Counted from the first letter of the stretch, positions 3,044 to 48,718 are shown. The stretch is 64,000 nucleotides of DNA from Candidatus Omnitrophota bacterium (GCA_015233115.1 JADFYJ010000006.1:65801-129800), one strand, 5' to 3'. The notes: generated from the sequence alone by a model not told the origin. Made by a program: numbers and translations.

Positions 3044-4177
3044 ATGACCGCGGTTGAAACAAAACGCAAACGTGTTTTATTAATGTATATCACCAAAGTA
3101 TCCGGCCATAGGCAGGCGACGATTGCGATTCAAAAATCTCTCAAAGCCATTGATCCGACGCTGGAAACGCCGGCGATTAATGGTTTTGGTTATACTTATC
3201 CCATCCTTGAAAAAATGGTCAATCAGGCCTATATGAGCGTGATCAAAACCACGCCTCAATTATGGGATTATTTATACGATAATCCGAAATTTTTTAAACG
3301 GTCGCAGAATATAAAAAAGTTTTTGTTTAAAAGCAGTCATGCCAAACTTGAGCGTTTATTTAAGCGGCATGATCCCAGTGTGGTGGTATGCACCCAAGCT
3401 TTCCCGTGCGGAATGGTCGCGGACTTTAAACGCCAGCACAATTTGGATTTCAAAATTGTCGGGGTATTAACGGATTTCGCGCCGCATTCTTATTGGATTA
3501 ATGACGGGGTGGATTATTATGTGGTGCCGTCTCAAGATTCTAAAGAGCGTTTTATGGCCAAAGGCGTCCCCGCGCCAATGATTAAAGTATACGGGATTCC
3601 GGTTAAGCATAAATTCGCGCAAAAGCATGAACAGCATACGGCGGCTCGCAACCTGGGATTAGATCCGTCCATTCCTTTGATTTTAGTGATGGGCGGAGGA
3701 CAAGGGTTGGGACCGATTAAAAAAATTGTTAAATCTTTGAGCAAAATTAATACAGCGGTTCAGATTGTGGTTTTGGCCGGTAATAACAAAAAGGTTATTG
3801 ATAAATTAAAAAAACTGGTTAAAAAATCTGAAAATAAAATTATGCCGATGGGTTTTTTAAAGAATGTGGATGAGTATATGGACGCGGCCTCAGTCATCAT
3901 CACGAAACCCGGCGGGATCACCACAGCTGAATCGCTGGTTAAGGGTTTGCCTATGGCGATCATTGATCCTTTGCCTGGCCAGGAAATGAGGAATACGGAT
4001 TTTTTAATTAAAAATGGCATCGCGATCCGTGTAGACAGCGCCAGTGATATTGGGGAAGAGATCGAAGTGTTATTGAAGACTCCGTCCCGGCTGGCCGCGA
4101 TGCGTAAAGCCGCGTTGGAATTTTCTTATCCTGATTCCTCCATGGATATCGCGCGTTTGATCATGGAACAACTGTAA
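3044..4177 (+). CDS. MGDG-synthase / MurG-like (GT28) glycosyltransferase, a diacylglycerol glycosyltransferase-like protein.
   Basis: N-terminal MGDG_synth-like region. C-terminal GT-B motif ITKPGGITTAESL...PGQE. Confidence 0.6.
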   Translation: MTAVETKRKRVLLMYITKVSGHRQATIAIQKSLKAIDPTLETPAINGFGYTYPILEKMVNQAYMSVIKTTPQLWDYLYDNPKFFKRSQNIKKFLFKSSHAKLERLFKRHDPSVVVCTQAFPCGMVADFKRQHNLDFKIVGVLTDFAPHSYWINDGVDYYVVPSQDSKERFMAKGVPAPMIKVYGIPVKHKFAQKHEQHTAARNLGLDPSIPLILVMGGGQGLGPIKKIVKSLSKINTAVQIVVLAGNNKKVIDKLKKLVKKSENKIMPMGFLKNVDEYMDAASVIITKPGGITTAESLVKGLPMAIIDPLPGQEMRNTDFLIKNGIAIRVDSASDIGEEIEVLLKTPSRLAAMRKAALEFSYPDSSMDIARLIMEQL

Positions 4178-4183
4178 AAAATC

Positions 4184-4317
4184 GGTTGATGGTTGTTGGT
4201 TTGTGGTTAAAACATTAGTTTTTTTTAAAAGCACAATGTCATTATATTATTGGTTTTTAGTTGTTGGTTAAATTATTCGTTTTGTCCAAAAACCAAAAAC
4301 AATCAACCATCAACCAT
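4184..4317. repeat. Intergenic palindromic element, GGTTGTTGG subfamily. Outer perfect 12-bp IR GGTTGATGGTTG / CAACCATCAACC; inner 68-bp unit 4251-4317.
   Basis: Inner unit GGTTTTTAGTTGTTGGTT...TTGTCCAAAAACCAAAAAC...CATCAACCAT is nearly identical to 6873-6940. Confidence 0.8.
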
Positions 4318-4334
4318 AATAATTTTTTAATACC

Positions 4335-6619: not shown

Positions 6620-6868
6620 ATGGAAATTGATTTTTTGAATTATGTTTTGAGTTTGGGATATCAAGCTATGGTTTTCTTAGGAGAAATACCTAATCCGTCG
6701 ACCAACAAAGAAGAAAAAAATTTGGATCAGGCGAAATTATTGATTGATACCTTGGTGATGTTGAAAGAAAAAACCCGGGGCAATCTTACTGAAGAAGAAG
6801 CGAATTTGTTAGAAAATTCACTCGCTGAATTGCAAATGAAGTACGTGGAGGCTGGAGCCAAAATATAA
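6620..6868 (+). CDS. DUF1844-family small protein.
   Basis: 82 aa; MEIDFLNYVLSLGYQAMVFLGEIPNP pattern typical of DUF1844. Confidence 0.5.
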   Translation: MEIDFLNYVLSLGYQAMVFLGEIPNPSTNKEEKNLDQAKLLIDTLVMLKEKTRGNLTEEEANLLENSLAELQMKYVEAGAKI

Positions 6869-6872
6869 AAGC

Positions 6873-6940
6873 GGTTTTTAGTTGTTGGTTGTTGAAAGTG
6901 TTTTTGTCCAAAAACCAAAAACTATAATCCATCAACCATG
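6873..6940. repeat. 68-bp GGTTGTTGG-subfamily repeat unit, near-copy of 4251-4317.
   Basis: GGTTTTTAGTTGTTGGTTGTTGAAAGTGTTTTTGTCCAAAAACCAAAAACTATAATCCATCAACCATG compared against 4251-4317. Confidence 0.8.
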
Positions 6941-6954
6941 AAAAGAGACAAGAC

Positions 6955-7392
6955 ATGAAAAGAATTCTTGTAATCAATGGACCGAATTTGAATTTGCTGG
7001 GCGAGCGGGAGACTGGTATTTACGGAAAAGTCTCGCTCGAAGATATTAATAAACTTCTTACTGTCGCAGCCAAAACGCATCAGGTATCTTTGGAGTTTTT
7101 CCAATCTAATCATGAAGGTGAAATTGTAGATAAAATTGGTCAAGTTAAAGCCGAAGGTTTTAGCGGCATCTTGATCAACCCCGCCGCTTACACTCATACC
7201 AGCATCGCGATCCGTGACGCGGTTGCTGCTGTTGTGATTCCTACTGTCGAAGTCCATTTATCCAATATCCATGCCCGGGAAGAATTTCGTCATAAATCGC
7301 TTATTGCACCTGTGGCACAAGGCCAAATCAGCGGTTTTGGCCCCCAAAGTTATGTCTTAGGTCTGCAAGCATTGGCAGGGATAATAAAATAA
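6955..7392 (+). CDS. aroQ: Type II 3-dehydroquinate dehydratase.
   Basis: [16 protein letters not shown]...[14 protein letters not shown] signature motifs; about 145 aa. Confidence 0.92.
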
Positions 7393-7425
7393 ATAGGTCT
7401 GTCCCTAATTATTGGAGCTAAACAT

Positions 7426-7923
7426 ATGAACAAAAAAAATGGCATTGTTTTACTTGGATTGCTCTTATCAGTTTCTTTGGCATGGGCACAAGCACAAAAT
7501 TTAGATTCCGCTGATACAAAAATTATCCTGGAGCGCAGAGGGTGCTTTGGGACTTGCCCTGCTTATAAATTAACCATTTATCCTGACGGGAAAATTAATT
7601 TTTTAGGAAAAGAATATGTGAAGGCCATGGGGCCGCATGTTAAAAGAATATCTTCCGATAAGCTGGCTCTGATATGGCGTGAACTGGAGAATACAAAATT
7701 TTTTGATTTGGATGGCAAATATGATTGTGAAGATGTGACAGATCAGGCGACAACTATAACAACGGTTATAAAAGACGGCAGTATAAAACAAATTGTCCAT
7801 TACCAGGGCTGTATGTCCGCGAATAAAAAAGAACTCTCTGCGTTGACTAAATTGGAAGATAAAATAGATAAGCTGGCAGGGATTGATGATTGGCTTTTAT
7901 ATGAAAAAAGAAAAAAGAAGTGA
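7426..7923 (+). CDS. Secreted or lipoprotein-like hypothetical protein with a C-x-G-x-C motif.
   Basis: Signal peptide MNKKNGIVLLGLLLSVSLAWAQA. No recognisable family. First gene of the putative inserted cassette. Confidence 0.45.
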   Translation: MNKKNGIVLLGLLLSVSLAWAQAQNLDSADTKIILERRGCFGTCPAYKLTIYPDGKINFLGKEYVKAMGPHVKRISSDKLALIWRELENTKFFDLDGKYDCEDVTDQATTITTVIKDGSIKQIVHYQGCMSANKKELSALTKLEDKIDKLAGIDDWLLYEKRKKK

Positions 7924-7940
7924 GAAGTAGATCCTTGATT

Positions 7941-7962
7941 GTGTACGGGATTTGTAGTACAC
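7941..7962. promoter_or_regulatory. Inverted repeat GTGTACgggatttgtaGTACAC upstream of relB, a candidate TA autoregulation operator.
   Basis: Palindrome lies 23 bp upstream of the antitoxin start codon. Confidence 0.4.
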
Positions 7963-7984
7963 TTTATTTGGAAAGGATAAAGAG

Positions 7985-8245
7985 ATGATAAAGCAATCAA
8001 GGGTTGAGGCCAGAGTCGCTTTGAAATTAAAAAATGAAGTCGGATCTGTATTAAAAAGACTGGACATTTCTGAATCGGAAGCGATTCGGATATATTTTAG
8101 GCAAATTGCTCTTACCAAAGGCATTCCTTTTGAAATAAAAATCCCTAATAAAGAAACGATCAGCGCGTTAAATGAAGTAACCACGGCTAAGTTAAGGGAA
8201 TTCAAAAGTTTTGATGAGTATCTTAAAGGTATCGATGCCGAATGA
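7985..8245 (+). CDS. RelB/DinJ-family antitoxin.
   Basis: 86 aa; ribbon-helix-helix-like N-terminus; overlaps the downstream RelE/YafQ toxin gene (ATGA). Confidence 0.65.
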   Translation: MIKQSRVEARVALKLKNEVGSVLKRLDISESEAIRIYFRQIALTKGIPFEIKIPNKETISALNEVTTAKLREFKSFDEYLKGIDAE

Positions 8246-8508
8246 GAATTATTTCTCCTACCAGACAATTTGACCGTGATTTAAAAAAATTATTAAAACG
8301 CAAAAAAGAAATATCAAAATTAAAAGCTGTGGTTGATTTGCTTTCGGGTGAAGGCCGACTGCCTTTAAAATATAAACCGCATGCATTAGTCGGTGATTGG
8401 ATCCCGTGTTGGGATTGTCATATAGAACCAGATTGGCTATTAATTTATCAAGTGACTGAGACTCACGTGTATTTATTCCGAATCGGTAGTCATTCAGATT
8501 TGTTTTAA
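8242..8508 (+). CDS. RelE/YafQ-family type II toxin (mRNA interferase).
   Basis: 88 aa; C-terminal HVYLFRIGSHSDLF resembles YafQ/RelE; 4-bp overlap with the antitoxin. Confidence 0.7.
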   Translation: MRIISPTRQFDRDLKKLLKRKKEISKLKAVVDLLSGEGRLPLKYKPHALVGDWIPCWDCHIEPDWLLIYQVTETHVYLFRIGSHSDLF

Positions 8509-8581
8509 TATATAGGGACAGTCCGTATTTATTCAAAGTTGTGTGTTAAGGCAGGAAGCGTTGGCAGGGATAATAAAATAA

Positions 8582-9595
8582 ATGAAATTAACTAAACGAT
8601 TTGACCATCAATTTTCAGACGTCATTAAGATGATTCACGCGTCTCGGTATAACGCCATCAAAAGCGTTAATGCTGAGCTTGTGAAGCTGTATTGGAGTGT
8701 GGGTGAGTACATCAGCAAGAAACTTGCTTCGGCTGAATGGGGAGATTCTGTTGTTGACAATCTTGCTGATTTTATCCAGGCTCACCACCCTGAATTTAAA
8801 GGTTTTACCCGTCGCGGTCTTTATCGGATGCGGCAGTTTTACGAATCCTATCGGGGTAGTAAATTTGTGTCAACACTGTTGACACAAATAAGCTGGTCCA
8901 GTCACTTGCATATACTTGCCAAAACTAAAACCATTGAAGAAAAAGAATTTTATCTGCGCCTCGCTATTAAAGAGAAATATTCTGTTCGTGAACTGGAGCG
9001 TCAGATTGATAGCGGCTATTTTGAGCGAGTGATGATCTCAAAGAAAAAAGTGTCACCACTGTTGACACAAATTCGTCCGGATGCTGTAGATGTGTTCAAA
9101 GATACCTATATCCTCGATTTTCTCAACCTCCCCGAAGCGCACAGCGAGAGCGATTTAAATCGAAGTATTGTTTCTAACCTTAAAGACTTTATTCTTGAAT
9201 TCGGCAAGGATTTTGCGTTTGTCGGCCAAGAATATCGTTTGCAAATAGGGAAAAGCGATTATTTCATTGATCTGCTATTCTTTCATCGTGGTCTGCGTTG
9301 CCTGGTTTTATTCGAGTTGAAAATAGACGATTTCAAGCCGGGATATATCGGTCAGTTGAATTTTTATCTTGAAGCGCTTGACCGTGATGTCAAAAAGCCG
9401 GATGAAAATCCCAGTGTAGGCATCATTCTGTGTAAGTCGAAAGATGATGAAGTGGTAGAATACGCGCTGAGCCGAAATCTTTCTCCAGCCTTGGTAGCTG
9501 AGTATAAAACAAAGCTTATTCCTAAAAAGATATTGGAAAAGAAATTGCATGAATATTACTTATTGGGCGAGTCTGTGAGAGAGAAGGAAAAATGA
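8582..9595 (+). CDS. YhcG-like PDDEXK nuclease (DUF1016 family).
   Basis: Internal duplicated LLTQI segments and a C-terminal D...EYK PD-(D/E)xK-like core; about 337 aa. Confidence 0.65.
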   Translation: MKLTKRFDHQFSDVIKMIHASRYNAIKSVNAELVKLYWSVGEYISKKLASAEWGDSVVDNLADFIQAHHPEFKGFTRRGLYRMRQFYESYRGSKFVSTLLTQISWSSHLHILAKTKTIEEKEFYLRLAIKEKYSVRELERQIDSGYFERVMISKKKVSPLLTQIRPDAVDVFKDTYILDFLNLPEAHSESDLNRSIVSNLKDFILEFGKDFAFVGQEYRLQIGKSDYFIDLLFFHRGLRCLVLFELKIDDFKPGYIGQLNFYLEALDRDVKKPDENPSVGIILCKSKDDEVVEYALSRNLSPALVAEYKTKLIPKKILEKKLHEYYLLGESVREKEK

Positions 9596-9643
9596 AGAGT
9601 TGGGGGCGAAATACTTACTGCGCGGAATTGCCGAGATAAGTCC

Positions 9644-9967
9644 GTGTCCCCGGAATACCATTCTTTGGAGGAATCAGGAATGCATACAAATGAATACTAT
9701 GCAGCTCTCGAAAAAGAATTGAAGGAAATCTTGCTCGTTGTCGGCGGCTCCTTGCCTGCCGATGATCAAGAAGAAATCACGGGATTTATTGCGCATGGGG
9801 AATATGGTTTGGCTTTTGAAACCTTGTGCCTGAGCTTTAAACTAAAATGCTCCAAAATGCCTTTGGAAGTGCGAGCCTCGGTTGAGCGGCTCGGCCGAAA
9901 GATGAAATTAGAACCTTCGTTGTGGGAAGAAATTATTTCTGAAAACAACTCAGGGACCTGTATTTGA
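9644..9967 (+). CDS. Hypothetical small protein, possibly immunity-protein-like. Local GC is visibly higher than surrounding sequence.
   Basis: 107 aa; no confident family. Last gene before the conserved pepP-efp-accBC block resumes. Confidence 0.35.
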   Translation: MSPEYHSLEESGMHTNEYYAALEKELKEILLVVGGSLPADDQEEITGFIAHGEYGLAFETLCLSFKLKCSKMPLEVRASVERLGRKMKLEPSLWEEIISENNSGTCI

Positions 9968-9998
9968 ATTCAGTTAATTCAGGACACAATACATAATT

Positions 9999-11060
9999 AT
10001 GCCAAAGCATATTTCCACCTTAAAATCTAATTTCCATAAACATCAAATCAACGCCTATCTGATCAACCGTGATGTGAATATCCGGTATCTGACCGGGTTT
10101 CCTGCCAGCGAATCATGGTTTTTGGTTACGAGTAAACAAGATTTTTACATCACCGATGGCCGGTATAAGCTCGAAGCCCAGAAAGGTTTACCTAAGTCTG
10201 TAAAAGTTCAGCTTTTTGAAAATTCTAAGTTTGAAGAAAGCTTAAAACTGGCTCATAGCCAAGGGGTTAAGGTCTTGGGATATGATAGCCGTTATGTGAC
10301 GGTTTTTGAGTTTTCACATTTAGAACGATTTGCTAAAAAGGCGAAAATTAAACTCAAAGCTTGCAATAATTTGGTGGAAGATATGCGGGCGATCAAGACT
10401 CCGGAAGAGGTGGATTATATCCGCCAGGCTTTGCAGATTCACCAAAAGGTATTAAGTATGCTAAAACGCCGGATCAAGCCTGGACTTACGGAAAAAGACA
10501 TACTTATCTATTTGAAGAAGTTTATTGAAACAAATAATACTAATTTTTCTTTTGATTCTATTATTGCTTCGGGGGGCAATTCCTGCTATCCTCATGCCCT
10601 GGTAACTGAGCGGAAAATCCTTGATAATGAAGCAGTTCTGGTGGATATCGGTTTCGAATATAAAGGTTACAAGTCTGACTTGACACGTATGTTTGTTTTG
10701 GGTAGAATAGCCGAACTTCAAAAGGAAGTTATTGAGCATGTTCGTCAGGCTCAAGCGTGTGCGATACGAATTATCCGGGATGGCGTTCCAGTAGCAGAAG
10801 TGGATCGGCAAGCTCGTAATTATCTGGAAAAGAATGGTTTGGCGAAGTATTTTTGTCATTCAACCGGTCATGGTGTGGGGCTGGAGATTCATGAGGCGCC
10901 GGCTTTATCTTCAAAAAGTGACGCGGTCTTAAGAGCGGGTATGGTTGTAACTGTGGAACCGGGGGTGTATATACCGGGAAAATTTGGGGTTAGATTAGAA
11001 GAAATGATTTTAGTCAAAAAGCAGGAAGGAGAATTGTTAAGTGGCAATTTCAATCAATGA
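9999..11060 (+). CDS. pepP: Xaa-Pro aminopeptidase (M24B family).
   Basis: Creatinase/M24 motifs HSTGHGVGLEIHEAP and GMVVTVEPGVY. Confidence 0.8.
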   Translation: MPKHISTLKSNFHKHQINAYLINRDVNIRYLTGFPASESWFLVTSKQDFYITDGRYKLEAQKGLPKSVKVQLFENSKFEESLKLAHSQGVKVLGYDSRYVTVFEFSHLERFAKKAKIKLKACNNLVEDMRAIKTPEEVDYIRQALQIHQKVLSMLKRRIKPGLTEKDILIYLKKFIETNNTNFSFDSIIASGGNSCYPHALVTERKILDNEAVLVDIGFEYKGYKSDLTRMFVLGRIAELQKEVIEHVRQAQACAIRIIRDGVPVAEVDRQARNYLEKNGLAKYFCHSTGHGVGLEIHEAPALSSKSDAVLRAGMVVTVEPGVYIPGKFGVRLEEMILVKKQEGELLSGNFNQ

Positions 11061-13864: not shown

Positions 13865-14478
13865 TGAAATTTTTTATGAGATTGGCGGTTTTGTTTTATG
13901 TAACTTTGGTTTTATTCTTAACAGCCTTTTTATTATTGTTTGTTTTCCGCTGGTTGGATTTTCGCTATTTGGTGAAATTGGCGGCTATGGCGTATACCAT
14001 GGACCAGATCCGTTTAATCATTGCGATCACTGCAGGTGTTATGCTTTTTATTAATTTCTTGTTTTATCGTTTTTGTTCCGTCAATGTCAGACGGGATAAG
14101 ATCATTGCGTTTGACAATCCTTATGGCCGGGTGAGTGTGTCATTAGCCGCGCTGGAAGAATCTGCCCGCCGGGCTGTACTCCGGTTGGATGAGATCAAAG
14201 AAGTGAGAGCCAGTATTGAAGCCTCCCGCGGACATCTGCGTTGCCGTCTTAAAATTAATTTAAATAAAGAAGTTAATATTCCTGAATTAACCTCGCGTGT
14301 TCAAGTGTTAGTGAGGGATAAAATTCAAGACGCGATCGGTTTGGAAGAAAAGATCGATGTCATGGTGTATGTCAGTCGGATTATTCCTTCGTATGTCAGC
14401 CGTACGCCGAATGAAGAAAAGAAAACCGACTCAACAAATGCGGAACCTCATATTCCGTTTAGAGGATACCGAATATAG
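13864..14478 (+). CDS. Membrane protein downstream of Asp23 (AmaP-like anchor protein candidate).
   Basis: Two N-terminal TM helices. Strong SD (AGGGGGA) before the ATG at 13864, so start trimmed from 13840. Confidence 0.45.
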   Translation: MKFFMRLAVLFYVTLVLFLTAFLLLFVFRWLDFRYLVKLAAMAYTMDQIRLIIAITAGVMLFINFLFYRFCSVNVRRDKIIAFDNPYGRVSVSLAALEESARRAVLRLDEIKEVRASIEASRGHLRCRLKINLNKEVNIPELTSRVQVLVRDKIQDAIGLEEKIDVMVYVSRIIPSYVSRTPNEEKKTDSTNAEPHIPFRGYRI

Positions 14479-14486
14479 AAATTTAA

Positions 14487-14663
14487 GTAACAAAGTAACC
14501 GAGTAACAGAGAAAAAACGATTGGTTGAAAAAACATTGGGGTAGAAAACTTATATCCGGGTTTAGTTAATTTTTTTGTTTGGGATTTTTTAATGACTGAG
14601 TTTTTGTTTTTTATGTTTTTTTGTTGCTTTGTTACTCGGTTACTTTGTTACTCGGTTACTTTT
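14487..14663. repeat. Intergenic palindromic element, GTAACNGA subfamily. Forward arm 14487-14511, core AAAAAACGATTGGTTG, reverse arm 14621-14663.
   Basis: Tandem GTAACAAA/GTAACCGA/GTAACAGA units with their inverse at the other end; ends 17 bp before the pfkA ATG. Confidence 0.8.
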
Positions 14664-14679
14664 AAAATGAGGAGAAGTT

Positions 14680-15697: not shown

Positions 15698-15912
15698 ATA
15701 GGTAATAGGCAATAGGCTAGAGGTGACGCTGTTGTAGGGGAGATCTCCTGATCTCCCGTTGCAAAATTATCGTTTTTTGGTTTTTATTTAAAAACGATTG
15801 ATGCGGGCGATCAGGAGATCGCCCCTACGAATAATTTTGTATGCGACCAAGGACGTAATTTAAAAAAGTTTTTTATTGGATTTTTTACCTATAGCCTATC
15901 GCCTATGACCTC
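15698..15912. repeat. Composite nested element. Outer ATAGGC-type inverted arms (15698-15724 / 15890-15912) enclose a GC-hairpin pair (15731-15758 / 15804-15829), core AAAAACGATTGATG and tail GCGACCAAGGACGTAAT.
   Basis: Read directly. Unit 1 carries compensatory changes (GGGAGATC...GATCTCCC) relative to the GGGCGATC...GATCGCCC unit. Confidence 0.8.
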
Positions 15913-18046: not shown

Positions 18047-18056
18047 CTGAAAAAAT

Positions 18057-18228
18057 CGTATGTGGTATGGGGCATGTAGTATGTAGTAAAAAACGATTGT
18101 GTGAAATGAAAAGGATAGAGAATATAATCTAAATACTTAATGTTTTTTGGGGTGATTAATTTTAAATTCTTTATTTTTTTATCAGTTGATTTTACTACAT
18201 ACGACATACTACGTACTACATACTTAGG
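18057..18228. repeat. Intergenic palindromic element, GTATGTRG subfamily. Forward arm 18057-18089, core AAAAAACGATTGTGTGAAATG, reverse arm 18191-18228.
   Basis: GTATGTGG/GTATGTAG tandem units and the inverse CTACATAC units; between tRNA-Gly and the M23 peptidase gene. Confidence 0.8.
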
Positions 18229-25472: not shown

Positions 25473-25479
25473 TAAAAAA

Positions 25480-25695
25480 GTATGTGGTATGTGGTATGTC
25501 GTATGTGGTGAAAAAAGCGATTTGTGAAAAGTATTAATGGTGATTACTAGCAGGAAAAATTTTGGATGTTTATATTAAATAATATATTTTAGTAGATGTT
25601 TATTTTTTAGGTTTTTTTTTAATTTATTTTTTTATTGGTCATTTGCTTATCGGTTTTTGTTTTTGCTACATACGACATACCATATACCACATACG
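25480..25695. repeat. Intergenic palindromic element, GTATGTRG subfamily. Forward arm 25480-25510, core AAAAAAGCGATTTGTGAAAAG, reverse arm 25663-25695.
   Basis: Tandem GTATGTGG units and the inverse CTACATACGACATACCATATACCACATACG. Confidence 0.8.
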
Positions 25696-25710
25696 TTACC
25701 AGGATTACTT

Positions 25711-32679: not shown

Positions 32680-32710
32680 GTTTTTTGTGACTTTATTGTT
32701 TTTATGCGTT

Positions 32711-32755
32711 TTGACTTTGTTACTCTGTTGCAGGGTTACTTTGTTACTCTGTCAT
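32711..32755. repeat. Solo reverse-type GTAACNGA arm (TTGTTACTCTGTT...GGTTACTTTGTTACTCTGTCA) with no forward partner.
   Basis: Same 8-mer units as the arms at 1936-1970, 14621-14663, 35355-35394 and 43428-43467. Confidence 0.6.
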
Positions 32756-32778
32756 TTTTTAATTCAGGAGGTTTCTGC

Positions 32779-33278: not shown

Positions 33279-35264
33279 TTGAACGCTTTTAAATTAAAAA
33301 GTCCATTTAAACCAGTGACTGAACAATTGGATGCGGTTGAGCGATTGTATCAGGGCATGAAAAATGGTTCCAAAGCGCAAGTGCTTTTAGGTGTCACTGG
33401 TTCCGGGAAAACTTTTACTCTGGCGAATGTCATTGAACGCTTAAACCGTCCGACCTTAGTAATTTCCCACAATAAAACTTTAGCAGCCCAACTGTATTCT
33501 GAGTTTAAAGAATTTTTTCCTGAAAACGCGGTGGAATATTTCGTAAGCTATTACGATTATTATCAGCCTGAAGCGTATGTTCCCCAAACTGATTTGTATA
33601 TTGAAAAAGACGCGGCTATTAATGACCGGCTCGACCGTCTGCGTTTATCATCAACCACCAGTCTCATGACCCGCCGGGATGTGATCGTGGTGGCCAGCGT
33701 TTCATGCATTTATAATTTAGGTTCACCGGAAGATTACACTCAATATCTGCTGCAGATGAAGGTGGGTCAGGAAATTGATCGGGATGAAATGGTTCGTCAA
33801 TTAGTGGATATCCAATATGAACGTAATGACGTGGATTTTAGCCGCGGAAAAATCCGGGTGAGAGGGGACACTGTGGAAGTGTTTCCGGCTTATCGTCAGG
33901 ATGCGTTACGGATCAGGTTTTTCGGCGATGAAATAGAACGGATTAGCCAAATCGACCCTTTAACCGGCGACGAACAAGTCCGCTTAGACCAAGCCGCGGT
34001 TTATCCGGCCAAACATTTTATTATTTCTCATCCCCGTCTGGAAATAGCTTGTCTGCAGATTGAGAATGAAATGAAAGAACAAGTTGCCTTGCTGCAGAAA
34101 GACGGAAAATTGGTGGAAGCTCAGCGATTAGAGTCCCGGACCAGATATGATTTAGAAATGATGAGGAGTATTGGGTATTGTAATGGCATTGAAAATTACT
34201 CACGGGTTTTGTCTGAGCGGCCCCCAGGCAGTCGTCCGTCTTGTTTGATTGATTATTTTCCTAAGGATTTTATTACCTTGATTGATGAATCTCATGTGAC
34301 GGTCCCGCAATTAAATGGAATGTACGCGGGCGACAGGGCAAGGAAAGAAACTCTGGTTAGATACGGCTTTCGTTTACCGTCGTGTTTGGACAACCGGCCG
34401 CTTAAATTTACGGAATTTGAAAAAGTGGTGGATCAACGCATTTATGTGTCTGCCACGCCTAGCCCGTATGAGATTAAAGATGCCCAGGGCCAAGTCGTGG
34501 AACAGATTATCCGTCCGACCGGGATCGTTGACCCCATGATTGAAGTCCGCCCGACCACTGGCCAGATTGAGGATTTGTTAAAAGAAATTAACAGCCGCGC
34601 AGAGCGTAATGAACGCGTTTTAGTGACGACCTTAACCAAACGAATGTCTGAGGACTTAAGTGAATTTTTAGCGGATCGCGGCGTTAAAGTGAAATATCTG
34701 CATTCGGATATTCAAACCATAGACCGGACTAAAATTTTAAAAGATCTACGGTTGAAGAAATACGATTGTCTGGTGGGAGTGAATTTGTTAAGGGAAGGGC
34801 TTGATTTACCTGAGGTGTCTCTCGTCGCGATTTTGGATGCGGATAAGCAAGGTTTTTTACGTTCTGAAACCTCTTTGATTCAGACTTCAGGCCGCGCCGC
34901 GCGTAATGTGAACGGCATTGTCATCATGTACGCGGATACAGTCAGCCAGGCTATGGCCAAGACTATTTTTGAATGCCAGCGTCGAAGAAAAATTCAGCTG
35001 GCGTTTAACATGGAGCATCATATTACACCAACCACCATTATTAGAGCTTTGAGTGAAGGGATTGAAAGTTTGGCCGTTGAAGAGGGTGACGAAGTGCTAC
35101 TTGACGCAGTAGGCCAAAGTGAGGCAGAATATAACCTTAGTTCTTATATCAGTGAACTTGAAGCAGACATGGAACAGGCCGCGCGAAATTTACATTTCGA
35201 AAAAGCCGCGCAAATAAGGGATAAGATTGAAGAAGTAAAAAAAAGTAACCGAGTAACAGAGTAA
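33279..35264 (+). CDS. uvrB: Excinuclease ABC subunit B.
   Basis: GVTGSGKTF Walker A, helicase motifs, beta-hairpin region, C-terminal UVR domain (LHFEKAAQIRDKIEE). The last 6 codons (SNRVTE) lie inside the repeat arm. Confidence 0.95.
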   Translation: MNAFKLKSPFKPVTEQLDAVERLYQGMKNGSKAQVLLGVTGSGKTFTLANVIERLNRPTLVISHNKTLAAQLYSEFKEFFPENAVEYFVSYYDYYQPEAYVPQTDLYIEKDAAINDRLDRLRLSSTTSLMTRRDVIVVASVSCIYNLGSPEDYTQYLLQMKVGQEIDRDEMVRQLVDIQYERNDVDFSRGKIRVRGDTVEVFPAYRQDALRIRFFGDEIERISQIDPLTGDEQVRLDQAAVYPAKHFIISHPRLEIACLQIENEMKEQVALLQKDGKLVEAQRLESRTRYDLEMMRSIGYCNGIENYSRVLSERPPGSRPSCLIDYFPKDFITLIDESHVTVPQLNGMYAGDRARKETLVRYGFRLPSCLDNRPLKFTEFEKVVDQRIYVSATPSPYEIKDAQGQVVEQIIRPTGIVDPMIEVRPTTGQIEDLLKEINSRAERNERVLVTTLTKRMSEDLSEFLADRGVKVKYLHSDIQTIDRTKILKDLRLKKYDCLVGVNLLREGLDLPEVSLVAILDADKQGFLRSETSLIQTSGRAARNVNGIVIMYADTVSQAMAKTIFECQRRRKIQLAFNMEHHITPTTIIRALSEGIESLAVEEGDEVLLDAVGQSEAEYNLSSYISELEADMEQAARNLHFEKAAQIRDKIEEVKKSNRVTE

Positions 35265-35394
35265 CAGAGCAAAAGCGATTGCTGGAAAAAACGATAGGCG
35301 ATATAAAATAATTTTTTTGAGGTTTTGTTTAGAGATTTTATATAATTTTTTTGTTTTTACTTTGTTACTCTGTCACTTGGTTACTTTGTTACTA
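35244..35394. repeat. Intergenic palindromic element, GTAACNGA subfamily. Forward arm 35244-35269 overlaps the uvrB 3' end; core CAAAAGCGATTGCTGG; reverse arm 35355-35394.
   Basis: AGTAACCGAGTAACAGAGTAACAGAG versus AGTAACAAAGTAACCAAGTGACAGAGTAACAAAG (reverse complement). Confidence 0.8.
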
Positions 35395-35426
35395 TTTAAA
35401 CCTTTCAGGCAAGATCGGATAATAAT

Positions 35427-36593: not shown

Positions 36594-36617
36594 TAAATAG
36601 GGGAACATGATGTTTTA

Positions 36618-36702
36618 TTGTTGATGGTTGATAGTTTTTGGTTTTTGGAAAAAACGGATGATTTCAACAGCAAAATCAACAACCAACAACCAAAAACCGA
36701 CA
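36618..36702. repeat. Intergenic palindromic element, GGTTGTTGG subfamily. Forward TTGTTGATGGTTGATAGTTTTTGGTTTTTGG, core AAAAAACGGATGATTTC, reverse AACAACCAACAACCAAAAACC.
   Basis: Lies between groES and groEL. Confidence 0.75.
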
Positions 36703-38504: not shown

Positions 38505-39689
38505 TTGGAAGATAGACAAGCAACAAAAAACAAAATAACATCAACAATCGCTTCTAATCTATCTTCTCCCGTCTATTCTCTATCATCTGACAATTTAGCC
38601 ATTCCTCCAGATCTATTAAGCAAGGTCTGGATCGTTCCAGCCCACGCGAAAGTGTATGAAAACGGCTCAACTGCGTATGTGGTAGAGGCTAAATTGAAGG
38701 TCATGCTGGAAGATGAATATTTTAAAGAAAATAGAAAAGAGAAAATAGACGATAGACAAGCCACAAAAAACAAAACAACATCATCAGCCGCTTCTAATCT
38801 ATCTTCTCCCATCTATCGTCTATCATCTTTTACAAAACAAATTATCATTCCTGCCATAGAAAAAGAAGTCAATGAAGGCGCGCATTTTGCCCAGCTTCGG
38901 CAAATTTATAGCGCTATGGTTTTGGCTACCTGGTATAAACAAAGAATGAAAGAGTCTCTGCTCGGCCAAATCTTTGTTAATAAAAATAAAACCAAAGGGT
39001 TTGATACGAGCGACAAACAGATCACCCGAAAAATTTATGACCAGTATTTAGAATCTTTTAAAAAAGGTGTGGCGAATTATATTAAAGAAGAATATGACCC
39101 TCTTAAACAGGAAATGGTCAGCCGCAAATATTTTACCGGTGGAGAGGATTATGCTCAGTTGAATGAGACAACAGCAATTGTTCCTATAAGTCAAATCTCG
39201 GATCAGGATAAAGCGGTTTTAAGTCAAACGAATAACAGTTTGGTCGTAGTTTCTTTGCATGAACTGAATGTTAGTCTGAAAGGGGCGAATCAAGTTGTCA
39301 GAGAACAAGTTATTCATCCGGAAATGGTAGAAGAACTTTGGCGGCGAATTCAAGAAATTGATAGACGCTTATCTATTTCCAGAGCGGCTATGAATGGTGA
39401 AAAAGTAGCAATAACAAATATTTTTGAAGAATTATTGCGTATTATAAATTTTGATAAGAAAAATTTAACTACAGGAAAAGATCAAAAAAATCAATTAACA
39501 TTGCTAAAACGCGCTAAAATTGCGGCATTTTACGTAATTTTGAATGCCGGCTCAGATAAGATTCACCGTGTTGAAATCCGCACATTCATAAAATCCTTGA
39601 CTCTGGACCATCGGTGTTTTAAAGTTTCAAAAGTGTTATACATGGCGTATCCTTTCTGTTCTGGGCTGACATGGGTCAACCCTGGTTGA
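38505..39689 (+). CDS. Hypothetical protein carrying the same unassigned conserved domain as residues about 175-330 of the 2696-aa protein, plus an internal 82-bp in-frame duplication.
   Basis: Both proteins share LSKVWIVP, AKLKV, IPAIEK.VNEG, LRQIY, LATW, DKQ, KIY.QYL and FIKEEYDP...YFTGG. No ATG in frame near the 5' end (TTG at 38505), so the start is uncertain. Confidence 0.5.
   Translation: MEDRQATKNKITSTIASNLSSPVYSLSSDNLAIPPDLLSKVWIVPAHAKVYENGSTAYVVEAKLKVMLEDEYFKENRKEKIDDRQATKNKTTSSAASNLSSPIYRLSSFTKQIIIPAIEKEVNEGAHFAQLRQIYSAMVLATWYKQRMKESLLGQIFVNKNKTKGFDTSDKQITRKIYDQYLESFKKGVANYIKEEYDPLKQEMVSRKYFTGGEDYAQLNETTAIVPISQISDQDKAVLSQTNNSLVVVSLHELNVSLKGANQVVREQVIHPEMVEELWRRIQEIDRRLSISRAAMNGEKVAITNIFEELLRIINFDKKNLTTGKDQKNQLTLLKRAKIAAFYVILNAGSDKIHRVEIRTFIKSLTLDHRCFKVSKVLYMAYPFCSGLTWVNPG
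38507..38829 (+). repeat. Two 82-bp direct repeats (38507-38588 and 38748-38829, about 90% identical) inside the CDS. Each encodes DRQATKNK.TS..ASNLSSP.Y.LSS.
   Basis: GATAGACAAGC.ACAAAAAACAAAA.AACATCA.CA..CGCTTCTAATCTATCTTCTCCC.TCTAT..TCTATCATCT was read in both copies. Confidence 0.8.
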
Positions 39690-41107: not shown

Positions 41108-41114
41108 TGAAACA

Positions 41115-41279
41115 GTATGTGGTATGTGGCATGTAGTATGTAGTATGTAGTATGTAGTATGTAGGGAAAAGCGATTGGTGTGAAATGCTATGGAGAACTC
41201 AGCTCTTCCTGTATAAAAATTTTTTTTATATTTTTTAATTTTTTTACTACATACGACATACTACGAACTACATACTATC
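41115..41279. repeat. Intergenic palindromic element, GTATGTRG subfamily. Forward arm 41115-41164 with 6 or more tandem TATGTAG units, core GGAAAAGCGATTGGTGTGAAATG, reverse arm 41240-41279.
   Basis: Read directly. Confidence 0.85.
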
Positions 41280-41305: not shown

Positions 41306-43036
41306 ATGGTAAAAAAACAAGTGAAAAAAGAACAAAAAAAACAGGCAGTCGCAGCGAAAAAGCAAGTGATGAAACCCGCACAAGTCATGAAACCGGCTAA
41401 ACGTAAAGGCCTTTTTAGATCTGGCCATCATGCTGGACTTGGATCTAAGGTCAAGGTCAAAGGTTTTGGACTTTCTGTCCGGGTTAAAAAACAGAAAAGC
41501 AAAGATCTGATCATTGTGCTTGATTTTGGTTCTCAATATACTCAGCTGATTGCCCGGCGTATCCGCGAAGCTAAAGTATACAGCAAGATTGTTCCTTACA
41601 CTATTACGGTAGATGAAATAAAAGAGATGCAGCCGAAAGGGATTATTTTGTCCGGCGGGCCGATGAGCGTTTATGATCAAGGCGCGCCTATTCCTCAAAA
41701 AGGGTTATTCGAATTAGGCATTCCGGTTTTGGGTATTTGTTACGGGATGCAGGTGATTAGTCATATATTCGGTGGAAAAGTTCAGGGAAGTAAAGAACGC
41801 GAATTTGGACGCGCGGAGTTATTTGTGGATAGTAATTTAGATTTGTTCGCGAATCTACCGACGAACATGACCTGCTGGATGAGTCACAGCGATGAAATCA
41901 AGGTTATGCCAAAAGGTTTCATGAAGATTGCCCATACTCTGAACGCGGAAGTCGCGGCGATTGCTAACCGGAGTAAGAAAATATATGGGGTACAGTTTCA
42001 TCCGGAAGTTATTCACACGCAGCGCGGCGCTCAGATATTGAGCAACTTCGCGAATAGTATTTGTGGATGTTTACCTCGTTGGACCATGGATAAATTTATT
42101 GATAATGCTATCCGTTTGATTAAAGAACAGGTTAAAGATGGCAAAGTGGTGTTGGGTTTAAGCGGCGGAGTTGATTCATCCGTGGCTGCGATTTTACTTC
42201 ATAAAGCCATAGGGAACCGTTTGTATTGCATTTTTGTTGATAACGGTCTTTTGCGTAAAGATGAAGCGTCTAAAGTTCAAAAAACTTTTAAGACTAACTT
42301 TAACATGAACATGAGCACAGTGAACGCTGAAACCAATTTCTTGAAGCGGTTGAAAGGCGTGACTGATCCGGAAGAAAAACGTAAAATTATTGGCGATGAA
42401 TTTATCAATGTGTTCACGGAAAAAGCCAATAAGATTAAGAATGTAAAATTTTTAGCTCAAGGCACATTATATCCTGACGTGATCGAATCCATATCACCCA
42501 AAGGCGGGCCTTCAGCTGTGATCAAGTCGCATCACAATGTGGGCGGGCTTCCTAAGTCTTTGAAAATGGAATTGATTGAGCCTTTTAGAGAATTGTTTAA
42601 AGATGAAGTGCGAATTATCGGCAAACATTTGGCTATGCCGGATACAGTGTTGAACCGTCAGCCATTCCCAGGACCTGGATTAGGAATACGTATTTTGGGC
42701 GAGGTTACGCGCGAACGTTTGGAGATTTTGCGCGAAGCCGATGAACGGGTGGTGGAAGAGATTAAAAAAGCTGGTTTATATAATCAAGTATGGCAGTCAT
42801 TCGCGGTATTGCTTCCGGTCAAGACTGTTGGAGTCATGGGTGACCAGCGTACATATGAAAATGTCATCGCGATCCGCTGCGTGACTAGTATTGACGGCAT
42901 GACAGCTGACTGGGCGCAAATTCCTTATGAAGTGTTAGGAAAAATATCCAATCGCATTATCAATGAAGTCAAAGGCGTGAATCGTGTCGTATATGACATT
43001 AGCTCGAAACCGCCGGCAACGATTGAGTGGGAATAG
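41306..43036 (+). CDS. guaA: GMP synthase (glutamine-hydrolysing) with a Lys-rich N-terminal extension of about 65 aa.
   Basis: GATase (GICYGMQ), ATP-PPase SGGVDSSV, C-terminal dimerisation domain. SD GAGG before the ATG at 41306; the canonical GuaA start ([12 protein letters not shown]) is about 70 aa in. Confidence 0.9.
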
Positions 43037-43042
43037 GAAAAA

Positions 43043-43467
43043 GTAACCGAGTAACCGAGTAACAGAGTGACAAAGAAAAAACGATTAATGCTAAAAACGT
43101 CTATGGGAAAAAGGTTACAAGATATAGGCAAAAAAATATATTTGGATGATAGAAAACAAGCAATAGGAAAAATTGTATTTAATTTGTTAATTTTGTGATT
43201 TTGGTTTAAATTTTATATAAGATTATTAATTATTTATATTATTGTTTTTATCGGTTGTTTTGGGTTTTTATGGTTGCTATAATTTTTAAATTTTATTTTA
43301 GGTTTGTAAGGCTATTTTTTTAATTTTTGGGTTATTGATAACCTTTCACTTTGTTGCTTTTTGAGGGGATTTTTGTAATTTTTTAAAGCTTTATTTTTTT
43401 TTGTTTTTTTAAAGTTTTATTATAAATTTTGCTCTGTTACTCGGTTACTCGGTTACTTTGTTACTCT
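43043..43467. repeat. Intergenic palindromic element, GTAACNGA subfamily, with a long (about 350 bp) AT-rich spacer. Forward arm 43043-43075, core AAAAAACGATTAATGC, reverse arm 43428-43467.
   Basis: GTAACCGAGTAACCGAGTAACAGAGTGACAAAG versus its inverse. Occupies the entire guaA-dnaE intergenic region. Confidence 0.8.
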
Positions 43468-43489
43468 TTTACGAGCTGCCCATTTTAAT

Positions 43490-46400
43490 ATGTCCAATTT
43501 CGTCCATCTTCATGTCCACACCCAATATAGTCTTCTCGACGGTGCTTGTCGGGTAGATGACATTATGCGTAAAGCTGTTGAATATCAGATGCCAGCTGTG
43601 GCCATGACGGATCATGGCAACATGTTCGGCGCTCTGGATTTTTATTTAGCGGCTAAGAAGAAAAATATTAAGCCTATCTTGGGCTGCGAAGGATATGTCG
43701 TAAAAAAAGGCAGCCGGTTTGACCGCTCCAATGAACAACGGGGGAATTTGTCGCATCTCGTCCTGTTCGCCAAAAATAATCAAGGGTATCACAATCTCAT
43801 TAAATTAGTTTCGCATGGTTATCTGGACGGATTTTATTATCATCCGCGCATGGATAAAGAATTGCTGGCTCAGCATTCAGAAGGATTGATCGCCTCATCC
43901 GCGTGTTTAAAAGGGGAAATCGCGCAATGCATCAGAGACGGCAATTTTAATTCCGCGTTAAAAATCGCGGATGAAATGCAATCATTATTCGGACGGGGAA
44001 ATTTTTATCTTGAACTCATGGACCATGGGATTTCCGAACAAATGGTGGTGAACCGGGAAATTTTAAAAATCGCCAAAACTTTGGATATACCGGTGATCGC
44101 GACCAATGATGTGCATTATATTGAGCAGAGTCAATCCCGCGCGCATGACGCGCTGTTATGTATCCAAACGCAAACCACTCTCGATGATCCCAAGCGGATG
44201 CGCATGTCGTCCGACCAGTTTTATTTCAAAAGTCCGGATGAAATGTTTTATCTTTTTAAGGAAGTTCCAGAGGCATTGTCGAATACGTTAAAGATCGCGG
44301 AGCAATGCGCGGTTGATTTTAAATTTGGTGAATATCATCTGCCTGTTTTTACCCCGCCTGAAGGCAAGACTCAATCTCAATATATCCGGGAATTATGTGA
44401 ACAAGGGATGGTTCGCCGTTATCCTAACGCGACACCGGAATTGAAAGAGCGTTTAGATTATGAATTACGGGTTATTGAAAAAATGGGATTCATTCCATAT
44501 TTTTTAATTGTCTGGGATTTTATCGCGTATGCCAAGAGTCAGGGAATTCCGGTTGGTCCAGGCCGCGGTTCTGCCGCCGGAAGTATTATCAGTTATCTGC
44601 TGGGCATTACAGATTTGGATCCGATTAAATACGGTCTTATCTTTGAACGGTTTATGAATCCTGACCGGAAAGGGATGCCGGATATTGATATCGATTTTTG
44701 CTTCGAACGCAGGCAGGAAGTTATTGACTATGTGAACCGCAAGTATGGCAGGGAAAATGTTGCCCAAATTATCACGTTCGGAACTATGAAAGCGAAAGCT
44801 GTGATTCGTGACGTGGGACGGGCTTTTGGCGTCCCTTACTCGGATGTGGACCGGATCGCGAAATTAGTGCCGAACGAATTAGGGATCACGCTTGATCAGG
44901 CTTTGGAAAAAGAACCGAAATTAAAAGAGCTTTGTGAGACGGACCGGGCTGCCGCGGATATTATGGAGATTGCTAAAGTGCTGGAAGGATTGAACCGTCA
45001 CGCCGGAATGCACGCGGCAGGAGTCGTGATCGCGGATAAACCATTGATGGAATATGTGCCGTTGTATAAAACGGCTGATGACCAGATTACGACAGGGTTT
45101 GAAAAAGATTTTGTGGAGAAGATCGGCCTCTTAAAAATGGATTTTCTGGGGCTAAAGACTCTGACGCTTATTCATGACGCTTTGCGGATTATCAAAGAAC
45201 GGAAAAAACTGGATATCAATATTCTTAATATTCCGCTGGATGACAAGAAAACTTTTCAGCTATTGTGTGCGGGAAACGCGTTTGGAGTGTTTCAGTTGGA
45301 AAGCGCGGGTATGCGTGATTTGTTGCGCAAATCTCAACCGGATCAGTTCGAGGATATCATCGCTATTGAAGCGCTTTACCGTCCTGGTCCTATGGGCAGC
45401 GGCATGCTGGATGACTTTGTGAAACGTAAACGCGGGGAAATGTCTTTTCAATATGATCACCCCAAGATGGAGCCGATCCTGAAAGACACTTACGGCATCA
45501 TGGTCTATCAAGAACAGGTTATGAAAATTCCAGTCGCGCTGGCCAATTTTACCATGACTCAGGCAGACCATTTACGCCGGGCTATGAGCAAAAAAGACCA
45601 GGGTGTTATGCAGGACATGCGTAAATCTTTTGTTGAGGGATGCCAGACCCACAGTCAGATTCCGCCGGAAAAAGCGGAACGTTTATTTGATCTGATTGAC
45701 CATTTTTCCGGATATGGTTTTAACCGAAGCCATTCCGCGACTTATGCTTTGATCTCTTATCAGACGGCTTATTTGAAGGCCAATTATCCGGTTGAATTTA
45801 TGTGTGCTTTGCTTAACAGCGAAATTGCGAACACGGATAAAATCGTGGAATACGTCAAAGAAACTGACGCTATGGGAATTGAAGTCCTGCCTCCGGATGT
45901 TAATGAGAGTCAGAAACGGTTTAGTGTGATCAATGAAAAAGCCATCCGTTTTGGATTGTTAGCCATAAAAAATGTCGGAGGGACAGCTATTGACTCTTTG
46001 ATTGAAAACCGGGGCAGCGGGTACAAGACACTTTTTCAATTATGTGAAAAGGCTGATTTGCGTTTAGTCAACAGGAAGGTATTGGAAAGTCTCATTAAAG
46101 CCGGGGCTTTGGATTGTTTAAAAATATTCCGTTCCCAGCTTATGGCTGTGTTGGATCGTCATTTGGAACTGGCGGGAAAGAATCAGAAAGAAAAATCCAG
46201 CGGCCAGGTTTCGTTTTTTGATATTTTGGGAAGTGATAACAGTTTTAATAATGATGTGGGAAAAATTCCTGATATCCGTGAATGGGACAAGAATCAAATG
46301 CTGGCTTTTGAAAAAGAAATTTTGGGCTTTTACGTGAGCGGACATCCTTTGATGCAGTATCAGGTTGAAATACAAGAGTTTACGGGAATGAACACCAAGA

Positions 46401-48707: not shown

Positions 48708-48718
48708 GTGAACGTCGC

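Follow-up and report, generated by a model that had tools for sequence, protein, structure and literature searches.

A REP-bounded, recombinase-free cassette with a duplicated aroQ end in a Candidatus Omnitrophota genome

A 64,000-nt stretch of DNA from a Candidatus Omnitrophota metagenome-assembled genome (MAG), referred to here as the window, carries about 2.6 kb of accessory DNA between aroQ, the gene of type II 3-dehydroquinase, and pepP, the gene of Xaa-Pro aminopeptidase. Positions given without a contig label are those of the window, and all genes of the locus lie on the + strand. That this interval is an insertion missing from relatives is well supported, and it is supported that the insert consists of two separately acquired modules, A (7395-8583) and B (8584-9998). 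Module A is enclosed by two copies of the aroQ 3′ end and has, just inside each copy, a degenerate palindrome of the repetitive extragenic palindromic (REP) type. How it entered is proposed with reserve; the reading preferred below is a single reciprocal crossover of a small circle within a short identical core. As a whole, the islet is an ordinary product of genome flux, with conflict genes in a permissive spot, and in this respect belongs to a known class. What is unusual is the variant in module A, a recombinase-free, REP-bounded cassette with a gene-end duplication, represented by one instance.

The insertion between aroQ and pepP

The comparison set consisted of 80 aroQ loci, one genome per species, in each of which the window proteins were located. 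Both genes are present in 44 loci spanning several phyla, and in 42 of them the gap between aroQ and pepP is -6 to 182 nt, against 2,606 nt in the window; the two exceptions are gaps of 552 nt (L071) and 3,628 nt (L021). In the closest relative, L001 (GCA_015233195.1; pepP 74% and accC 94% identical, with the downstream gene order of the window), the aroQ stop codon and the pepP ATG overlap. The five insert genes have no homologue within ±8 kb of aroQ in any of the 80 loci. The interval is regarded as an insertion because its loss in all relatives, with exact restoration of overlapping genes, is not credible. An initial annotation, made from the sequence alone, had claimed such an insertion after aroQ, and the claim is borne out by the empty site in the closest relative and in nearly all others; the observation that the annotation said would refute it, namely the same genes between aroQ and pepP in relatives lacking the repeat, was not made in any of the 80 loci. 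Its gene order, with a RelB/RelE-type pair, a YhcG nuclease and then pepP-efp-accB-accC, is likewise upheld by profile searches, and the conserved backbone picks up again at pepP, followed by efp, accB and accC. The features of the locus are as follows.

6955-7392, + strand: aroQ, type II 3-dehydroquinase, intact (Pfam DHquinase_II, E = 1e-59); the C-terminal SYxLGLxAL is kept as in relatives
7345-7394, + strand: DR1, first copy of the direct repeat, consisting of the functional aroQ 3′ end and 2 nt; identical 23-bp core at 7372-7394
7387-7413, no strand: S_L, degenerate copy of the 27-nt REP-type palindrome, AATAAATAGG-TCTGTCCCTAATTATT; best match of covariance model R1 in the window (7385-7416, 19.1-20.6 bits, E ~0.01-0.03)
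7426-7923, + strand: DUF6438 protein with signal peptide (Pfam DUF6438, E = 2e-29)
7934-7984, + strand: promoter/operator of the toxin-antitoxin (TA) module, with GTAC...GTAC palindromes, conserved in homologous modules elsewhere (DNA homology)
7985-8245, + strand: antitoxin of the RelB/DinJ family (Pfam RelB, E = 1e-12; NCBIfam TIGR02384, 57 bits, above cutoff)
8242-8508, + strand: toxin of the YafQ family, RelE fold (Pfam YafQ_toxin, E = 2e-31), overlapping the antitoxin gene by 4 nt
8507-8533, no strand: S_R, second degenerate copy of the REP-type palindrome, AATATATAGGGACAGTCCGTATTTATT; second-best locus of model R1 (8504-8536, 17.8-19.2 bits)
8534-8583, + strand: DR2, second copy of the direct repeat, a non-functional aroQ-3′-like 50-mer; identical core at 8561-8583
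8582-9595, + strand: YhcG-type PD-(D/E)xK nuclease (Pfam DUF1016_N and YhcG_C, E = 5e-57 and 5e-41; PADLOC PDC-S02, E = 4e-133)
9680-9967, + strand, open from GTG 9644: immunity-like open reading frame (ORF) of the MafI family (NCBIfam NF033691, 35.6 bits against a cutoff of 31)
9999-11060, + strand: pepP, Xaa-Pro aminopeptidase (Pfam; synteny with L001 and ~40 other loci)

The window has exactly two copies, at 7372-7394 and 8561-8583, of the 23-mer TTGGCAGGGATAATAAAATAAAT, which covers the end of aroQ; none of 100 shuffles matched it even with up to three mismatches. Both copies had been noticed in the initial annotation, which placed the first one base too low (7371-7393) and took 23 bp as the length of the duplication. 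The duplication is real and its true length is 50 nt (7345-7394 and 8534-8583, 43 of 50 positions identical). All seven mismatches lie at positions 8-27, the first 7 nt and the last 23 nt being identical; the chance of finding all seven within the first 27 positions is P = 0.009. The copies start 1,189 nt apart, and their divergence is abrupt and confined to the aroQ-proximal side. DR2 would encode a tail ending in SCVLRQEALAGIIK and a stop, with C, R and Q at the positions of Y, G and L that are conserved in every relative inspected; since it breaks conserved aroQ residues, it is not a recently functional gene end that was displaced. Its TAA runs directly into the ATG of yhcG (TAAATG), a junction of the same kind as the tight aroQ/pepP junctions of relatives (ATGA, TAGATG, TAAAATG). 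Continuation of aroQ similarity upstream of DR2, through S_R, was considered and rejected (P = 0.85 against the aroQ of the window, P = 0.04-0.2 against that of L001). An empty site is present in relatives, but none bearing the identical 23-mer was found; in one public metagenome collection, scanned for exact matches, the 23-mer did not recur, whether beside such an insert or at an empty site. Contigs of the same species were sought through the window aroQ and pepP products, neither of which is in the contig index.

The inner borders of the repeats are occupied by the inverted repeat of the initial annotation, whose two strings, AGGTCTGTCCCTAAT at 7395-7409 and ATATAGGGACAGTCCG at 8510-8525, are present two bases higher than first given. 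With one 1-nt gap the inverted repeat reaches 27 nt (7387-7413 against 8507-8533, 23 of 26 matches), with an alignment score of 32, compared with 12 ± 2.4 for random pairs of window segments, none of which reached 32 in 3000 trials. The interpretation as imperfect terminal inverted repeats, that is, transposon ends, does not hold: S_L and S_R are each self-palindromic, being degenerate forms of the 27-nt AATAAATAGGGAC-W-GTCCCTATTTATT, a REP-type palindrome that is widespread and flanks Y1 genes elsewhere. S_R agrees with the ideal palindrome of two phage-like contigs, L085 and L092, at 25 of 27 positions. Both copies fit the repeats exactly. The outer 8 nt of S_L are the last 8 nt of DR1, aroQ stop codon included, so that 7-8 nt (AATAAAT) are common to the palindrome and the repeat end, and the GC-rich core of S_L begins exactly where DR1 ends (7394/7395). 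S_R overlaps the yafQ stop codon and ends exactly at the start of DR2 (8533/8534).

A covariance model, R1, was built from 100 metagenome palindrome sites. In the window it finds two loci only, S_L and S_R (17.8-20.6 bits, rough E 0.01-0.06), the next best hit scoring 12.5 bits; the search for further copies of the inverted repeat proposed in the initial annotation thus yields none within the 64 kb. When the aroQ loci of 80 genomes (~1 Mb in all, ~25 of the genomes being Omnitrophota) were searched with the model, no hit had E <= 1, and the loci with homologues of the cargo genes gave no match either. Since S_L and S_R are the sole copies in the window and none was found in the aroQ or cargo-homologue loci, the palindromes belong with module A. 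Either they arrived with it from a genome carrying the REP family, or they took part in its arrival.

The repeats bracket module A only, module B having no repeat at its pepP-side border. A third copy of the aroQ end was sought there and rejected: the best local alignment scores 12, a value equalled by 2032 of 3000 random windows. The initial annotation had seen one or two nested cassettes that used the aroQ terminus as a target or attachment site. The insertion, the two modules and the duplication of the aroQ end around module A in an att-like pattern stand; for module B, in the absence of a repeat at the pepP border, nothing shows that the aroQ terminus served as its target. The simplest idea for module B would be an arrival from a related strain by flanking homology in aroQ and pepP. 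Neither the insert nor its flanks (7 kb upstream and the syntenic stretch on the downstream side) encode an integrase or transposase, and no Y1 transposase gene is found anywhere in the window. With neither kind of enzyme encoded in the insert or within ~7 kb, the use of the aroQ terminus as an attachment site can be inferred only, as a reasonable but unproven proposal, and a full-text literature search found no paper on aroQ as an att site.

Base composition is a weak witness of foreign origin. Module A has 36.3% GC and module B 41.6%, compared with 41.4 ± 3.0% for window genes. The three genes of module A are 1.4-2.2 sd low in GC, with z = -3.2 for the GC3 of YafQ. The composition of module B is native-like except for the codon usage of yhcG (z = -2.0). 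The last gene of module B, described initially as GC-richer, has 43.8% GC, only z = +0.8 against window genes.

Two observations concern the junction in other genomes. The L001 contig starts within the last 77 nt of aroQ (L001 1-80), exactly at the insertion spot of the window, which may reflect strain variation or an assembly break. In L021, from a different lineage, a 3.6-kb insert lies at the aroQ-pepP junction (L021 8441-12069), without notable or flanking repeats. By ORF reading, with no profile check, it encodes a secreted protein resembling sulfatase-modifying factors, a HicAB-like pair and a caspase-like protein. Because this insert is independent, the junction tolerates insertions more than once.

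A REP-type palindrome family shared by distant genomes

Metagenome contigs were scanned with the 21-nt core AAATAGGGACWGTCCCTATTT, and at least 120 stretches were retrieved. Among the matches listed, the contigs bearing the core range from 39 to 72% GC (median 67%), their flanks are unrelated, and the palindrome often stands directly after a stop codon, often in doublets 30-60 nt apart. Several long contigs have it at more than one place, with 18 copies in 12 kb of L190; in L205 it follows genes which, by ORF reading, are gmd-like, tyrS-like and rfbB-like. Within the family, compensatory A-T/T-A changes lengthen the palindrome stem. In four contigs (L138, L190, L113 and L174) the palindrome lies on both sides of a Y1_Tnp gene (IS200-like, Pfam above cutoff), as at L138 9354/10101 and L190 5882-11862, and because it flanks Y1 transposase genes it is classed as a REP-type repeat. 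The four Y1_Tnp proteins are only 33-40% identical to one another. A REP family with an exact core shared across very different genomes is what these matches look like.

The likeness to REPs, REPINs and REPtrons associated with RAYT transposases (TnpA_REP, Y1; PMC6006769, PMC3116915) lies in the 27-nt, hairpin-capable palindrome, within the usual 20-40 nt, its position after stops, its doublets and its placement around Y1_Tnp, and S_L and S_R bracket a block of genes as REPs bracket the RAYT gene in a REPtron (PMC6006769). The differences are several. The foot of the palindrome reads A-ATAG-GGAC, with ATAG in place of the canonical 5′ GT[AG]G, although atypical REPs without GT[AG]G exist in some subclasses (PMC6006769). 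Each REP family is described as tied to its own transposase, whereas here one 21-nt core accompanies divergent Y1 proteins. In place of many dispersed host copies, the 64 kb of the window contain only two degenerate ones, each at a border of module A, with cargo and no RAYT gene between them, and there is the gene-end duplication that REPtrons lack. No direct repeats were found around the REP-flanked Y1 transposase genes of the four loci, so that the 50-nt duplication is not a general trait of the palindrome family.

A degenerate 18-mer, used to scan viral contigs, retrieved pairs of the ideal 27-mer between head-morphogenesis genes; the contigs concerned are phage-like and of high GC. Palindrome doublets are present in phage-like or gene transfer agent (GTA)-like contigs at L085 8463-8541 (between portal and capsid genes), L092 1538-1627 and L093 5795-5935 (between decoration-protein and capsid genes). 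In cultured phages and plasmids only chance half-matches were obtained. Full-text searches of the literature with the palindrome sequence returned no bacterial paper, the few matches being unrelated eukaryotic or herpesvirus papers. Among the by-products of the analysis, this widespread family and its link to divergent Y1 transposases are of the greatest interest, and no description of the family by sequence was found in the searchable literature.

Possible routes of entry of module A

The preferred reading, held tentatively and short of an even chance, is that module A entered by a single reciprocal crossover of a ~1,189-bp circle within the 23 bp of identity; it takes in homologous exchange on a minimal substrate, the action of some site-specific enzyme and the remnant of a cis-mobilizable element (CIME). 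Module B (yhcG and the MafI-like gene) would have come first, leaving the aroQ stop directly abutting the yhcG start (TAAATG), and module A (the DUF6438 gene and the self-promoted DinJ/YafQ pair) would have followed. A Campbell-type exchange would have joined this aroQ-TAAATG-yhcG junction to a circular DNA of ~1,189 bp, the joint of which carried an aroQ-3′-like 50-mer between two copies of the REP-type palindrome. With the crossover inside the perfect 23-bp identity, the host arm to the left of the core would be retained in DR1 and the diverged arm of the circle would be found in DR2, one palindrome being left just inside each repeat. One exchange in the core would account for the spacing of the repeats, their one-sided divergence, the non-functional arm of DR2 and the placement of the palindromes. 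As the insert has no recombinase, the exchange would have been made in trans, by homologous recombination on the 23-bp substrate or by a site-specific enzyme, and the cassette would now be non-autonomous. The reconstructed joint of the circle (S_R, 42 nt aroQ-like, S_L) forms a long imperfect hairpin (-14.9 kcal/mol, z = -5) and resembles the palindrome doublets found elsewhere.

Several points weigh against the crossover. The model gives no reason for an aroQ-like 50-mer on the circle, which presupposes earlier residence beside an aroQ gene. At 23 bp, the substrate lies at the minimum length for exchange by RecA, and the locus offers no site-specific enzyme instead. TTG opens the 23-mer and TAAATG closes it, and five of the seven upstream changes are to G, making the Shine-Dalgarno-like AAGGCAGGAAG; selection for a mini-ORF coupling the translation of yhcG could have shaped the sharp boundary of identity, a caveat for all models. 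The REP-flanked Y1 loci lack a gene-end duplication, so the palindromes and the duplication may be unrelated. Finally, there is a single instance, and neither an empty site bearing the 23-mer nor a circle joint was found.

Next in standing, and unlikely, is the illegitimate capture of a linear, palindrome-bounded fragment of 1,139 bp (7395-8533) at a staggered break or template switch, with a 50-nt target duplication. The aroQ end and the outer palindrome arm have AATAAAT in common, and this 7-nt microhomology would have made the left joint; DR2 would have changed later at seven positions. This fits the exact borders, S_R ending at the start of DR2 and the S_L core starting at the end of DR1, with the target supplying precisely the 7-8 nt missing from S_L. 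REP hairpins are hot spots of recombination and insertion, and the left part of DR2, to which all the changes are confined, does not code for protein. The distribution of the changes is the difficulty: seven in 20 nt and none in the other 30 nt has P ~0.001-0.02 under uniform decay, and a local divergence of 35% implies an old insert, yet the copies do not differ at all in the aroQ tail, which evolves fast. Moreover, we know of no bacterial transposition system that yields 50-nt duplications.

A somewhat poorer case can be made for homology-facilitated illegitimate recombination with a donor from a REP-rich genome, arranged as aroQ-S-DUF6438-relBE-S (S being the palindrome) and anchored inside aroQ, the other end having joined 50 nt upstream of the recipient aroQ stop; DR1 would be the donor end and DR2 the displaced end of the recipient. 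The palindrome sits elsewhere on or after the stops of ordinary genes (L205), so such a donor would be typical, the GC of module A is below that of the host, and no recombinase would be needed. However, DR2 should then have been a working aroQ end, yet it has the changes Y, G, L to C, R, Q while its last 23 nt are untouched, and the palindrome is found in 0 of ~25 Omnitrophota aroQ loci.

It is improbable, if only slightly more so than the donor route, that module A is what is left of a larger integrase-bearing element at the aroQ 3′ end, of which the att cores survive after deletion of the integrase and most of the cargo. Classically, attL and attR appear as an identical core with a diverged arm around a housekeeping-gene 3′ end. 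CIMEs, described for streptococcal ICE/IME sites, keep attL and attR after losing the genes for integration and transfer (PMC5704250), and tandem islands accumulate at one gene end, as at ssrA in Dehalococcoides (PMC3146451). The window shares with CIMEs and tandem accretion a short, integrase-free segment with direct repeats that include a target-gene 3′ end (50 nt, with a perfect 23-nt core), an empty site in related genomes (L001 and 42 of 44 loci) and a second accessory segment in tandem at the same gene end. It differs in that module A measures only 1.19 kb, in the aroQ target, in the outer repeat missing from module B and in the REP-type palindromes at the inner edges of the repeats. Module A shows no fragment or pseudogene of an integrase, the 1.19 kb being filled by three intact genes and a promoter; no literature report of aroQ as an att site was found, and no related integrase-bearing element occurs at aroQ in the 80 loci. 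The CIME remnant is listed apart from the crossover because nothing in the 1.19 kb resembles a decayed integrase.

The duplication of a gene end has another counterpart in e14 and phage 21 in E. coli icd, where the 3′ end of a metabolic gene is duplicated, the element supplies the alternative working end and an integrase is encoded. One functional and one non-functional copy are present there as in the window. Identity lies at the 5′ edge of the duplicate in e14/phage 21 and at the 3′ edge in the window, where the diverged copy was never a working end.

More improbable still is that a RAYT-type Y1 transposase, supplied in trans, acted on both palindromes and moved an S-cargo-S unit in single-stranded form. 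The palindrome flanks Y1_Tnp genes on both sides in the four independent loci named above, the spacing and position of S_L and S_R mimic the arrangement around these genes, and the palindromes occur nowhere else in the window. Against this, the window has no Y1 transposase, Y1 transposition is not known to duplicate its target, and no duplication flanks the four REPtron-like loci. In addition, S-gene-S arrangements elsewhere enclose ordinary housekeeping genes, so that flanking copies alone do not define a mobile unit. A related proposal is also a long shot, namely that a REP/RAYT system has given rise to a derivative that carries passengers and has the palindromes as its working ends. In it Y1 in trans, acting on a REP family with a 21-nt core present in genomes of 39-72% GC, would move a block of genes to the region around the stop codon of a conserved gene, and the joint used would include the aroQ-like 50-mer. 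If it were true that the palindromes help to move cargo, the supposed roles of REP/RAYT systems would be extended, and 'domesticated' REP systems would be vehicles for the horizontal transfer of cargo such as a TA cassette.

That there was no insertion at all, the genes being ancestral and lost in relatives or the repeat an artefact of metagenome assembly, is very hard to credit: the source is a MAG and the L001 contig breaks inside the aroQ 3′ end, a spot that can be hard to assemble, yet aroQ abuts pepP in 42 of 44 loci of several phyla and independent exact losses restoring overlaps are implausible, while the aroQ-like copy has just 50 nt with unique sequence on both sides and current assemblers finish with k-mers longer than a 23-nt repeat.

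Other classes of element were examined and set aside. A DDE transposon or miniature inverted-repeat transposable element (MITE) does not fit, there being no short (2-14 bp) duplication flanking the palindromes, no transposase and no further copy in the window. An integron cassette does not fit either: the palindrome halves would be at opposite ends of the cassette, no RYYYAAC/GTTRRRY core sites were recognized on reading and no integrase is nearby. For an integrative mobile element exploiting Xer (IMEX), which would sit at a 28-bp dif-like site of the replication terminus, the core lacks, by eye, a XerD arm resembling TTATGTTAAAT, and the cumulative GC skew rises steadily through the region.

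Whatever its route, a recombinase-free cassette of 1.19 kb entered an operon junction that is among the tightest and best conserved in bacteria without breaking it, and the single-crossover-type scar offers a concrete case for studying the movement of minimal cassettes in uncultured phyla.

Cargo genes and other features of the window

The gene content (DinJ-YafQ, YhcG/DUF1016 of the PADLOC candidate defence family PDC-S02, a putative orphan MafI) is typical of defence or conflict islets, with YhcG and MafI as the probable conflict genes. The location is different: the islet lies inside an aroQ-pepP-efp-accBC operon and not beside a tRNA gene or a mobile element. As judged from family membership only, the TA pair may stabilize the islet, abort phage infection or both. 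The same-strand orientation of the genes would permit operon read-through into pepP-efp-accBC. Scans for promoters and terminators gave counts equal to those of shuffles, and the repeats were not flagged; no Rfam family was found in 6800-10100 at E <= 1.

Module A is in turn composite, its DUF6438 gene and TA pair having their closest homologues in different, unrelated contexts. The DUF6438 protein, initially called a lipoprotein, has a signal peptide (ending AWA/QAQ) and no lipobox cysteine; because its first Cys is residue 40, it is regarded as secreted and not as a lipoprotein. It has just two other homologues among 5.8 billion clusters, and the one that is 60% identical sits between unrelated genes. 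The TA pair has many homologues of 66-76% identity, those of YafQ mostly on short contigs. DinJ/YafQ has the type II layout, in which a small antitoxin gene is overlapped (here by 4 nt) by a gene for a toxin of the YafQ/RelE fold. The toxin scores above cutoff with TIGR02385 (RelE/StbE) and Pfam YafQ_toxin and below it with the YafQ-specific TIGR00053 (78.6 against 87.25 bits). DNA homology of the TA module to L083 and L084 spans 7934-8510 only, from its own promoter/operator through the toxin stop. Elsewhere the TA homologues lie between comEC and bamD-lptE-holA or beside other genes, and never beside aroQ or a DUF6438 gene. In L215-L218, from several assemblies, a 66% identical DinJ/YafQ pair is found as a lone cassette between comEC and bamD-lptE-holA (for example L215 3744-4270), a further instance of this module placed among housekeeping genes. 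The possibility that the cargo moves together with its borders was rejected, as L082 (DUF6438) and L083, L084 and L214-L220 (TA) have unrelated contexts with no palindrome and no aroQ fragment; the YhcG-like neighbour in L214 is not homologous to the YhcG of the window.

In module B, the small ORF probably starts at ATG 9680, behind a GGAGGA ribosome-binding site, and has no Pfam match. Its match to the MafI family (35.6 against 31 bits) covers only 40 residues, and its upstream gene is yhcG and not a MafB-type toxin gene, no toxin gene adjoining it; if the family assignment is real, it would be an orphan immunity gene. Within yhcG, a near-perfect palindrome of 23-24 nt, GTGTCAACACTGTTGACACAAAT, occurs in two copies 183 nt apart (8862-8889 and 9050-9073), each of which encodes VS(T/P)LLTQI.

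The window has its own abundant families of intergenic repeats, none of which is related to the S_L/S_R palindrome. One consists of runs of the 8-nt units GTTACTCG, GTTACTCT and GTTACTTT and their reverse complements, in inverted pairs ~200-350 nt apart. A second family with an 8-nt period, (GTATGTGG / GTATGTAG)n, has the inverted partner (CTACATAC)n. A third pairs sequences containing GGTTGTTGGTT with others that contain CCAAAAACCAAAAAC and CATCAACC, and has one copy just upstream of aroQ. A fourth is the palindrome family CTGTTGTAGGGGCGATCTCCCGATCGCCC. Their positions are as follows.

1683-1981, 14466-14678, 32680-32774, 35224-35411, 43030-43491 and 53252-53317: runs of the 8-nt units of the GTTACTCG group
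18052-18225, 25474-25697 and 41109-41278: second family with an 8-nt period
4175-4322, 6864-6944, 36613-36673 and 47345-47387, and also 268-407, 15729-15830 and 48718-48759: the two further intergenic families (the GGTTGTTGGTT pair; CTGTTGTAGGGGCGATCTCCCGATCGCCC)

Apart from these families, an 81-nt direct repeat, 89% identical, has its two copies 240 nt apart (38508-38588 and 38748-38828), and a single ORF of 2,696 codons extends over 54964-63054.

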